DNA of 64,000 nucleotides, from the NCBI RefSeq assembly GCF_024700885.2, contig NZ_CP117016.1; one strand, given 5' to 3'. Both the position numbers and the translations under genes were made by a program. The DNA comes from Escherichia coli (GTDB taxonomy: Bacteria > Pseudomonadota > Gammaproteobacteria > Enterobacterales > Enterobacteriaceae). This document shows, piece by piece, positions 62,983-63,960 of the stretch; the first letter of the stretch is position 1, and every line of letters starts with the position of its first letter. Under the pieces are notes generated by a model. That model was given only the letters and a program-made list of their open reading frames with translations. It was not told the DNA's origin and did not search any database.

Positions 62983-63960
62983 CAAAAGTGGCTCTTCCGC
63001 AACCTAGGTGAAGATTTTCATGCCAGTGGACTCATTACCCTCCGCCTAAGTAGTTCAAATCCGGCTCGACCATACATCTGGCGTATCAGCACCTTCAGGC
63101 GATTTACATGACCTTCGACAACACCATTACTCCAGCGACTGCTGATTGCCTCACATATAGCCGCAGCATCAGCTTCCATCCCCGCAGCTACGCACCGAAG
63201 TTCTGCTGAGCCGCTTTCGTGGACTCGAGTGAACCAGCTGCTTAGCTGTGATTTATTTTAGGTTTTCAGAATACGGTAGAACTCGAGTACCAGTTGCTGT
63301 GCTATTTTCAACTCCGGTTCTTTTTCACACATCAGACTAATAAATCGGGATGCATAATTTTCTTCGCCCCTGATTATTCTCCAGGGCATCAACCAGCGGC
63401 TTACCCGGAACACTGAAGGAAGTCTTGCGGCAGTAGTAACCGGTGGGTTCCAGCCTTTACGCCATTTGGCAACAGTATCCCTGACGATGGTTTCACTGCC
63501 TGTCCCCCCCCCTGGGCCACCATTTCCCGCCATATCCGGCTGGCATTATAATTACCACTTTCTCGTTGCTCTTTTAACCACTCCCTCCATGGGTCCAGAA
63601 GCCCTCGCTTTGGAGGCCGGGTTGACATTTCAGGGAATGTTCCTGAACGCACCCAGCGACTGACTGTCACTCGCGACAGGCCTGTAATACGGGATATTTC
63701 CCTGAAACTACATCCCTTGTTATGCAGGGCCATAACCTCTGTCCAATGCTGATGCCGTTTTTTGCGGGTTTGCTGTTTAAGGCGTTCCGGACGACGGAGC
63801 GATGCTACAGGCACAGATATTTCTGGCTCAGGTGATTTCTTCAGTGATAACTCTCTGACAACAAGACGTATCAGAGGCATATGTCTGTACATCATTCGTT
63901 CAGGCTCATCACCAATATTTTTTAGCAGGTGCCATCGATCGGCCACCTGTCTGGCCTGAG
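62983..63960 (-). mobile_element. degenerate ISL3-family-like insertion sequence (transposase fragmented over at least three frames; extends past the window end)
   Basis: Minus-strand C-terminus ...VVEGHVNRLKVLIRQMYGRAGFELLRRRVMSPLA* resembles the conserved ISL3 transposase C-terminus; upstream ORF pieces (63258-63533, 63401-63946) carry an HTH (ISRITGLSRVTVSRW) and a DRWH motif in different frames; candidate terminal repeat ggctcttccgcaacc at 62983. Confidence 0.4.

Follow-up and report, generated by a model that had tools for sequence, protein, structure and literature searches.

At the right-hand end of the window, by which we mean the whole 64,000-nt stretch of Escherichia coli DNA analysed here, a broken transposase gene lies next to a fragment of ggt. 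The initial annotation had described it as a degenerate ISL3-like element with a transposase split across three reading frames, and as a probably inactive relic that had truncated the ggt copy. The locus raises the questions of which element the relic derives from, what brought it to this position, and how it was disabled.

Identity and extent of the relic

The ISL3 assignment had been based on the minus-strand C-terminal peptide VVEGHVNRLKVLIRQMYGRAGFELLRRRV (about 63039-63125), and this peptide indeed fell within a Pfam DDE_Tnp_ISL3 match on the minus strand. The frameshift-repaired translation of the relic scored 346 bits over residues 31-535 against the NCBIfam model NF033550 (transpos_ISL3), for which the cut-off is 180 and an intact relative scores 375 bits. 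The terminal inverted repeats of the ISL3 family are 15-39 bp in length with a GGCTCTT-like start, and that of the relic starts with the ISL3-type GGCTCTTCC. Together with 95% identity to copies designated "ISL3-like element ISEc38 family transposase" by PGAP, the model match and the repeat start supported the family assignment. The corresponding features are as follows.

62990-63010, plus strand: ISEc38 terminal inverted repeat on the transposase C-terminal side, GGCTCTTCCGCAACCTAGGTG (repeat search and alignment with ISEc38 copies)
about 64693-64713, outside the window: partner inverted repeat, GGTTCTTCCGCAACCTGGGTG
63018-64000 in the window and to 64639 beyond it, minus strand: transposase pseudogene, residues about 214-539 of a 539-aa ISEc38-type protein
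63021-63170, minus strand: C-terminal part of the split DDE_Tnp_ISL3 domain (Pfam)

The inner ISL3 element spans 62990 to about 64713 (1724 bp), and its first 1011 bp (62990-64000) lie in the window. As had been anticipated, both the pseudogene and the element continue past the window, and extension to the right located the other end at about 64713. The start originally placed at 62983 was right in that an ISL3 remnant occupies these coordinates, although the true inverted repeat begins 7 nt further in, at 62990. In the intact relative, the ISL3 zinc ribbon (PF14690) was found at residues 40-83; its counterpart in the relic lies beyond the window and carries a TGA at residue 66.

As an intact reference we used the copy at locus L003 (WP_074410646.1, 539 aa), which PGAP names as ISEc38 family. 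In a codon-wise alignment with its coding sequence, the relic showed 95.1% nucleotide identity, with 77 substitutions, one indel and two stops. The relic shares with ISEc38, to the extent that identity was measured against PGAP-named copies, the same inverted repeats, an inner length of 1722-1724 bp and the 539-aa architecture, and differs from it in being a pseudogene with one frameshift and two stops that is fixed at one site. A scan of species-representative genomes for the ISEc38 repeat pattern returned one chance match, in a planctomycete, and ISEc38 was absent from that set.

Genomic setting

The segment 62600-64000 of the window was 100% identical to many complete E. coli chromosomes, among them NZ_CP025847.1 (locus L001; window coordinate = L001 + 56599), in which the RefSeq annotation gives the following order.

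cobUST, then IS4 and IS3 fragments, then a phosphotriesterase-related gene without its N-terminus
window 62646-62929, minus strand: ggt fragment
window 63018-64639, minus strand: "ISL3 family transposase; frameshifted; internal stop" (PGAP pseudogene)
zinc-ribbon genes split by an IS100

The php'-ggt'-ISL3 junction was detected in 2609 of 5426 complete genomes at a query coverage of at least 80%, and the ISL3 element with 30-nt flanks in 2784 by the same coverage measure. The relic is an ordinary dead IS, already annotated in RefSeq, which occupies one chromosomal site in about half of the complete E. coli genomes. A pre-insertion (empty) site at the window locus was found in none of the E. 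coli genomes, which carried either the whole php'-ggt'-relic junction or the true ggt only.

To the left of the relic, an IS3 fragment (orfA/orfB; window 60571-61755), frameshifted and incomplete according to PGAP, adjoins the phosphotriesterase-related paralogue (window 61776-62606) and removes its N-terminus. This paralogue is intact in O104:H4 (about 344 aa; L105 134-1168), where a DMT-transporter pseudogene precedes it. The php paralogue and the ggt fragment converge at their 3' ends, and a G+C-rich hairpin, cccccggcacactgcgccggggg, separates them at window 62617-62640. Since php and ggt are, as we take it, far apart in K-12, the php-ggt island probably derived from another arrangement or donor.

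IS100-like stubs at both ends of the relic

The repeat search returned an inverted repeat of 43 nt around the relic, as against the approximately 21 nt expected, and the outer portion of this repeat proved to match the tip of a different element.

62969-62989, plus strand: outward-facing 21-nt stub TGTCACGAACAGTGCAAAAGT(G), corresponding to the tip of the IS100 left terminal repeat

The reference IS100, found 335 bp further to the right in L001, ends in TGTCACGAACGGTGCAATAGTGATCCAC (left repeat) and TGTCAATGACGGATGAAAAGTGATCCAC (right repeat). The window stub matched this left repeat at 20 of 22 positions and that of a natural IS100 variant in L108 at 21 of 22, while the far stub was identical (22/22) to the right repeat of the IS100 in L107. 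The reference IS100 itself (L001 8471-10424, equivalent to about 65070-67023 of the window) is intact in istA/istB and interrupts a zinc-ribbon gene, where a TCCGG duplication of 5 bp surrounds it.

Ten further ISEc38 copies on plasmids and chromosomes were flanked by these two blocks, likewise pointing outward. The type A block equals the IS100 left tip (often 22/22, as in L003, L006, L008, L010 and L011), and the type B block equals the IS100 right tip (21/22, or 22/22 against the L107 IS100); relative to the transposase gene, all four combinations (A/B, B/A, A/A and B/B) were present. No 8-bp duplication was detected at the inner boundaries of the E. coli copies, whose flanks were inverted and never direct. 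The same held for the relic, in which the 8-bp flanks of the inner boundary agree at only 3 positions and no direct repeat was found outside the stubs.

The space between the stubs contains the ISEc38 relic and no istA/istB; tblastn with IstA and IstB detected only the separate IS100 further right. In summary, the 21-22 nt outside each ISEc38 repeat resemble the left and right tips of IS100, including its TGT...ACA ends, whereas the istA/istB genes and the 5-bp duplication of IS100 are missing, only the first 21 nt remain, and the GATCCAC motif is lost. By these sequence comparisons, the relic is a dead ISEc38 lying between two IS100-type tips.

At the window's locus in E. coli L16-131 (L107 2700-2745 and 4660-4700), a complete IS100 is located at zero spacing from the far stub, flanked by a 5-bp GCTGT duplication (...GTTGACA|GCTGT|TGTCACGAACGG...IS100...GTTGACA|GCTGT|GAAG). 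This insertion hints that an orphan tip is still attractive to IS100.

Sites occupied by related elements

For the relatives of ISEc38, each end was anchored on the ISL3 repeat and the flanks were profiled. Distant relatives (30-40% protein identity), from soil and water metagenomes and alphaproteobacterial plasmids, contributed 100 unique ends. Of these, 19 had a TGT start at -21 and 6 had one at -20, as against one or two per position elsewhere (binomial p = 2e-13); in Enterobacteriaceae, TGT stood at -21 in 24 of 31 ends. About two thirds of the distant-relative ends had no TGT at -21, with some tips beginning TGG or TGA, and some of these ends may lie in non-IS21 targets. Only one relative was found in viral contigs.

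Eleven elements exhibited 8-bp duplications at the inner boundary, either perfect (L016, L027, L029, L055, L062, L068 and L094) or at 7 of 8 positions, and L019 was also among the simple insertions with a perfect 8-bp duplication inside IS21-type terminal repeats. The empty sites reconstructed from such elements consist of the tip (13-14 nt), then the duplicated 8-bp A+T-rich stretch, and then GACCCAC/ACCCC. A second motif of this type follows 23-24 bp further in, and some elements are located there, about 42-46 nt from the tip. istA or istB directly adjoined the elements at L016, L019, L055, L056, L062 and L093.

Simple insertions were also observed in E. coli. In L108, retrieved with a chimeric junction query, an ISEc38 end is fused to the interior of an IS100 right repeat (TGAAAAGT|GATCCAC), and in L109 an intact ISEc38 splits a single IS100-like right repeat, leaving the tip on one side and the interior with an istB fragment on the other. 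Chimeric queries that paired each of the ISEc38 ends with interior sequence of the IS100 left repeat returned no simple insertion, the sole full match being the L107 IS100 beside the stub.

Units of the tip-ISL3-tip form were found among the relatives at L014, L017, L020, L021, L024, L042, L057, L069, L075, L088, L089 and L091. Five units had perfect direct repeats just outside the tips, of 5 bp in L006 (CCATG), L057 and L091 and of 8 bp in L021 and L042; these outer repeats are the trace of an IS21-family insertion. The analysis did not yield any IS21-family element whose two terminal repeats each contained an ISL3 copy; in the case of L062, the other end was intact. Taken together, the aligned flanks place this lineage at a fixed position inside IS21-family terminal repeats, far above chance.

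An IstA-like module within the ISL3 transposase

A tblastn search with IS100 IstA, which was aimed at neighbouring IS21 genes, gave matches inside the ISL3 ORFs themselves in about 45 of 80 metagenomic relatives. The window ORF had HTH matches in Pfam, and the Pfam ISL3 DDE match of the transposase was split around the IstA-like stretch.

63447-63742, minus strand: IstA-like HTH-1/linker/HTH-2 module, residues about 300-397, embedded in the ISL3 DDE domain

By BLASTP, residues 300-385 of ISEc38 aligned with residues 9-98 of IS100 IstA at 33% identity (E 1e-9). When a profile of six diverse members was compared with solved structures, the only significant match was IS5376 IstA (8Q4D and 8B4H; E 1.5e-15), with profile positions 298-397 aligned to IstA 9-110. 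In the NCBIfam search, the intact relative matched NF033550 at residues 30-534 and, within this range, positions 2-104 of the IS21 model NF033546 (transpos_IS21) at residues 302-397 (E 3e-15); the relic's own repaired translation matched positions 2-101 of the latter (E 2e-15). ISEc53, a typical ISL3 transposase of 406 aa, gave no NF033546 match even at E values up to 1.

In IstA, residues 1-39 (HTH-1) and 55-104 (HTH-2), together with a minor-groove linker, read CS2 and CS1, which are terminal-repeat motifs spaced 23 bp apart (PMC10122671). R31, T92 and K95 are among the IstA residues that read these motifs (PMC10122671), and, as we read the profile alignment, ISEc38 keeps R, T and R at the aligned positions. 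From the homology and the insertion sites described above, we infer that the IstA-like module would bind IS21-type terminal repeats. The ends of ISEc38 itself (window 63011-63050; L001 8060-8100) contain GGTGGA motifs, GGGTGGAGATTTTCATGCCAGTGGAC, and since these correspond to the IS100 TCCAC(C) core read on the opposite strand, the module might also bind the element's own ends.

Proposed origin of the arrangement

As the best explanation overall, with a probability of roughly 0.8, we propose that the relic is a dead ISEc38 copy lying in IS100 tips, and that it came there through targeting by the IstA-like module, two insertions and recombination. Of this explanation, the observed portion comprises the identity and lesions of the relic, its stubs, the domain homology, the association in position with IS21-type ends, and the simple insertions that carry duplications.

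In the targeting step, the module, being kin to the part of IstA that reads the repeats of its own element, would tether the ISL3 transposase to IS21 repeats and direct its insertion, a role that we regard as fairly probable from the sequence comparisons. Insertion would take place 21 nt (or about 45 nt) inward of the tip, in the A+T-rich spacer that adjoins a conserved GAYCCAC-like motif on the tip side, and would leave the 8-bp duplication typical of ISL3. At the window locus, an IS100-like element would once have stood beside the ggt fragment, and each of its terminal repeats would have received an ISEc38 insertion; the two ISEc38 copies would then have recombined, deleting istA/istB to give tip-ISEc38-tip, and later rearrangements would have erased the flanking duplications. 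Recombination between copies at different sites could likewise account for the A/A and B/B forms and for the frequently missing flanking duplications. This route of two insertions plus recombination is one that we infer, and against the explanation as a whole stands the fact that the relic has a duplication at neither boundary; its own history is reconstructed by analogy. The proposed precursor, an intact IS100 with ISEc38 in each of its repeats, was likewise not encountered.

Most E. coli ISEc38 copies are already in the tip-ISEc38-tip form, a prevalence that would also fit stubs travelling with the element, either through mobilisation by IstA/IstB or because the stubs are its real ends. The main rival explanation accordingly holds that the stubs are the outer part of ISEc38's own 43-nt inverted repeats, merely IS21-like, and move at each transposition. 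Nearly all E. coli copies carry the stubs in many contexts, blocks of 21 nt that begin with TGT also bound both ends of relatives with 30-74% protein identity, and the IstA-like module could recognise these blocks as belonging to the donor ends. Nevertheless, every block is exactly one of the two IS100 tips, left or right, and all four pairings around the transposase gene are represented; the perfect 8-bp duplications of simple insertions (e.g., L016, L055 and L062) lie at the inner GG.TC boundary; the IS21 repeat runs on into istB/istA on one side in L016, L019, L055 and L062 and in the E. coli loci L108 and L109; and the direct repeats outside the tips are often of 5 bp, as in IS100, rather than the 8 bp of ISL3. 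The inner-boundary duplications and the 5-bp outer repeats in particular weakened this rival, less so for the E. coli copies, and we consider it unlikely.

Relation to the ggt fragment

Whether the relic had interrupted ggt, as the initial annotation assumed, depends on what lies between the two.

62646-62939, minus strand: 3' fragment of a ggt paralogue, pseudogene (PGAP, BLAST and alignment to K-12 ggt)
62940-62968: 29-nt spacer, neither ggt nor IS (alignment to K-12 ggt)

The fragment is about 92.5% identical to K-12 ggt and has a 1-bp deletion in the T-run at 62808-62811. After the ggt homology come the spacer, in which five more bases could be ggt if a 12-bp deletion is assumed, then the IS100-like stub at 62969-62989, and then the ISL3 repeat at 62990. 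The homology thus stops at 62939, with 29 nt and the 21-nt stub intervening, and the proposed truncation of ggt by the ISL3 element was not borne out.

The fragment does end only 50 nt from the ISL3 inverted repeat, and IS elements often truncate genes; an insertion of the ISL3 element into an intact second copy of ggt, which would so have truncated it, is nonetheless improbable. Besides the non-ggt spacer and the IS100-type stub between ggt and the ISL3 repeat, the rest of ggt is missing past the other end, where the L001 annotation has no 5' part of the gene beyond the far end of the element. The 8-bp duplication is also absent, with no target duplication found around either the inner element or the stubs, and the breakpoint is fixed in every island-carrying genome, so that no intermediate state is represented.

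Lesions and decay of the transposase gene

In order to define the lesions, the pseudogene was compared codon by codon with the intact relative, which identified two in the window.

63258-63260, minus strand: nonsense TAA (CAA to TAA, Q460*), common to all four lineages examined (codon comparison)
63504-63513, minus strand: net +2 insertion plus substitutions in a nine-C run, the sole frameshift in the window and private to its lineage

Instead of the three reading frames with at least two switches reported at first, the window contains two frames, separated by one frameshift, and one in-frame stop. The supposed switch at about 63260 is the nonsense codon, and the ORFs on either side of it (63018-63179 and 63258-63533) share one frame. 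The net +2 frameshift, with the two additional bases assigned to 63512-63513 at the nine-C run (63504-63512), affects the second HTH of the IstA-like module. A third lesion lies beyond the window, where TGC at residue 66 has become TGA (64442-64444).

The Q460* TAA was the only lesion common to the window lineage, ST131, O104:H4 and strain CAU16175. Private lesions were S88 to TAA in ST131 and L113 to TAA plus a 1-bp deletion in CAU16175, with none further in O104:H4. The TAA shared by four lineages and the differing further lesions argue for an old decaying copy rather than sequencing error, and bear out the description of the element as an inactive relic; by this comparison, it is an old pseudogene that is evidently decaying by drift. 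The residue-460 nonsense mutation would have been the first to disable the element, and independent stops and indels would have followed in each E. coli lineage. The window lineage would then have acquired the +2 frameshift at 63504-63513 and the TGA at residue 66, in a copy that is presumably inherited vertically and now does nothing.

That the frameshift lies in a nine-C homopolymer, a typical site of error and a possible slippery site, might suggest sequencing errors, which the initial annotation had itself allowed for, or a programmed frameshift in a functional transposase, an alternative that is practically excluded by the 100% identity of the relic sequence in at least 25 independently finished genomes, the two in-frame stops besides the frameshift, the orthologous copies in other lineages that lack the frameshift yet have other stops, and the intact ISEc38, which is one uninterrupted 539-aa ORF with no frameshift site. 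The relic itself is of little import; as its lesions vary from one E. coli clade to another, it can serve to mark lineages.

Comparison with known elements

Typical ISL3 elements such as ISEc53 share with the ISEc38 lineage the Zn-ribbon N-terminus, the ISL3 DDE domain, GG.TCTTCC ends and 8-bp duplications, whereas they have no IS21-type tandem-HTH insertion. We know of no reported preference of typical ISL3 elements for IS21 ends. IS4321 and IS5075 of the IS1111 group target one fixed position within the terminal repeats (38 bp) of Tn21-family transposons, and the ISEc38 lineage shares with them the concept of an IS whose preferred target is the terminal repeat of another element, which is thereby disabled. 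In contrast to ISEc38, however, these elements employ a DEDD/IS110-type enzyme and generate no duplication, and the targeting by ISEc38 would use a module borrowed from the transposase of its victim. We lean toward the view that ISEc38 and its relatives of about 520-560 aa in Gammaproteobacteria, Alphaproteobacteria and Actinobacteria captured an IstA tandem-HTH module and home into IS21-family terminal repeats.

ISEc38 is a catalogued IS, and in the full texts searched it occurs only within lists of mobile elements in E. coli genome surveys. This search of freely available full texts returned neither an IstA-like module in ISL3 transposases nor an ISL3 insertion into IS21 ends. The architecture of the ISEc38 lineage and its habit of occupying IS21 ends thus appear to be undescribed so far, while the relic itself is ordinary.

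If this reading is true, the ISEc38 lineage would be a parasite of another IS family, and the relic in the window the tombstone of an IS100. Insertion would part the cleavage tip from the IstA-binding motif, thereby disabling the host element, and the two 21-nt tips would be what is left after the second insertion and recombination. The lineage would then represent natural target selection gained via a domain captured from the target's own transposase, and would suggest that insertion sequences can limit each other's spread. It would also explain the near-constant IS100-like flank of ISEc38, an element routinely reported in mobile-element screens, where such a flank could mislead the calling of IS boundaries and annotation. 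Moreover, a DDE core with a swappable HTH targeting module would provide a testable modular system of the kind sought for programmable insertion.

Further observations on related elements

L012 was initially considered as a simple insertion in an IS100-like interior on account of its AAAGTGATCC motif, and was rejected when BLAST revealed no homology to IS100; on visual inspection, its flank in translation resembles an IS66-family transposase gene.

In the Klebsiella pneumoniae plasmid of L014 (398-2178), a relative with 74% protein identity and the diverged tips TGTCAACAACGGGTAAAAAGT and TGTTACCAACGGTGCAAAACT lies between an aquaporin gene and pcoE, and its match is in two pieces. About 1100 Klebsiella plasmid records were retrieved, and those among the matches listed showed the same 74.2% two-piece match; this copy is probably another fixed relic.

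In two distant relatives, L035 (28-136 and 1828-1936) and L037 (519-583 and 2291-2355), near-perfect inverted repeats of 65-109 nt extend beyond the ISL3 repeat, with IS21-like motifs (GGACATTT...GGACAATTGAC) on both sides as though both flanks were repeat interiors. Such flanks may represent a form reciprocal to the double-tip one, a palindromic target or a misassembly. In L060 (about 640-680 and 2450-2490), a tip-ISL3-tip unit is flanked by a 22-bp direct repeat, GCTAACATTCATTTGTAAGACT, which is longer than any expected duplication.
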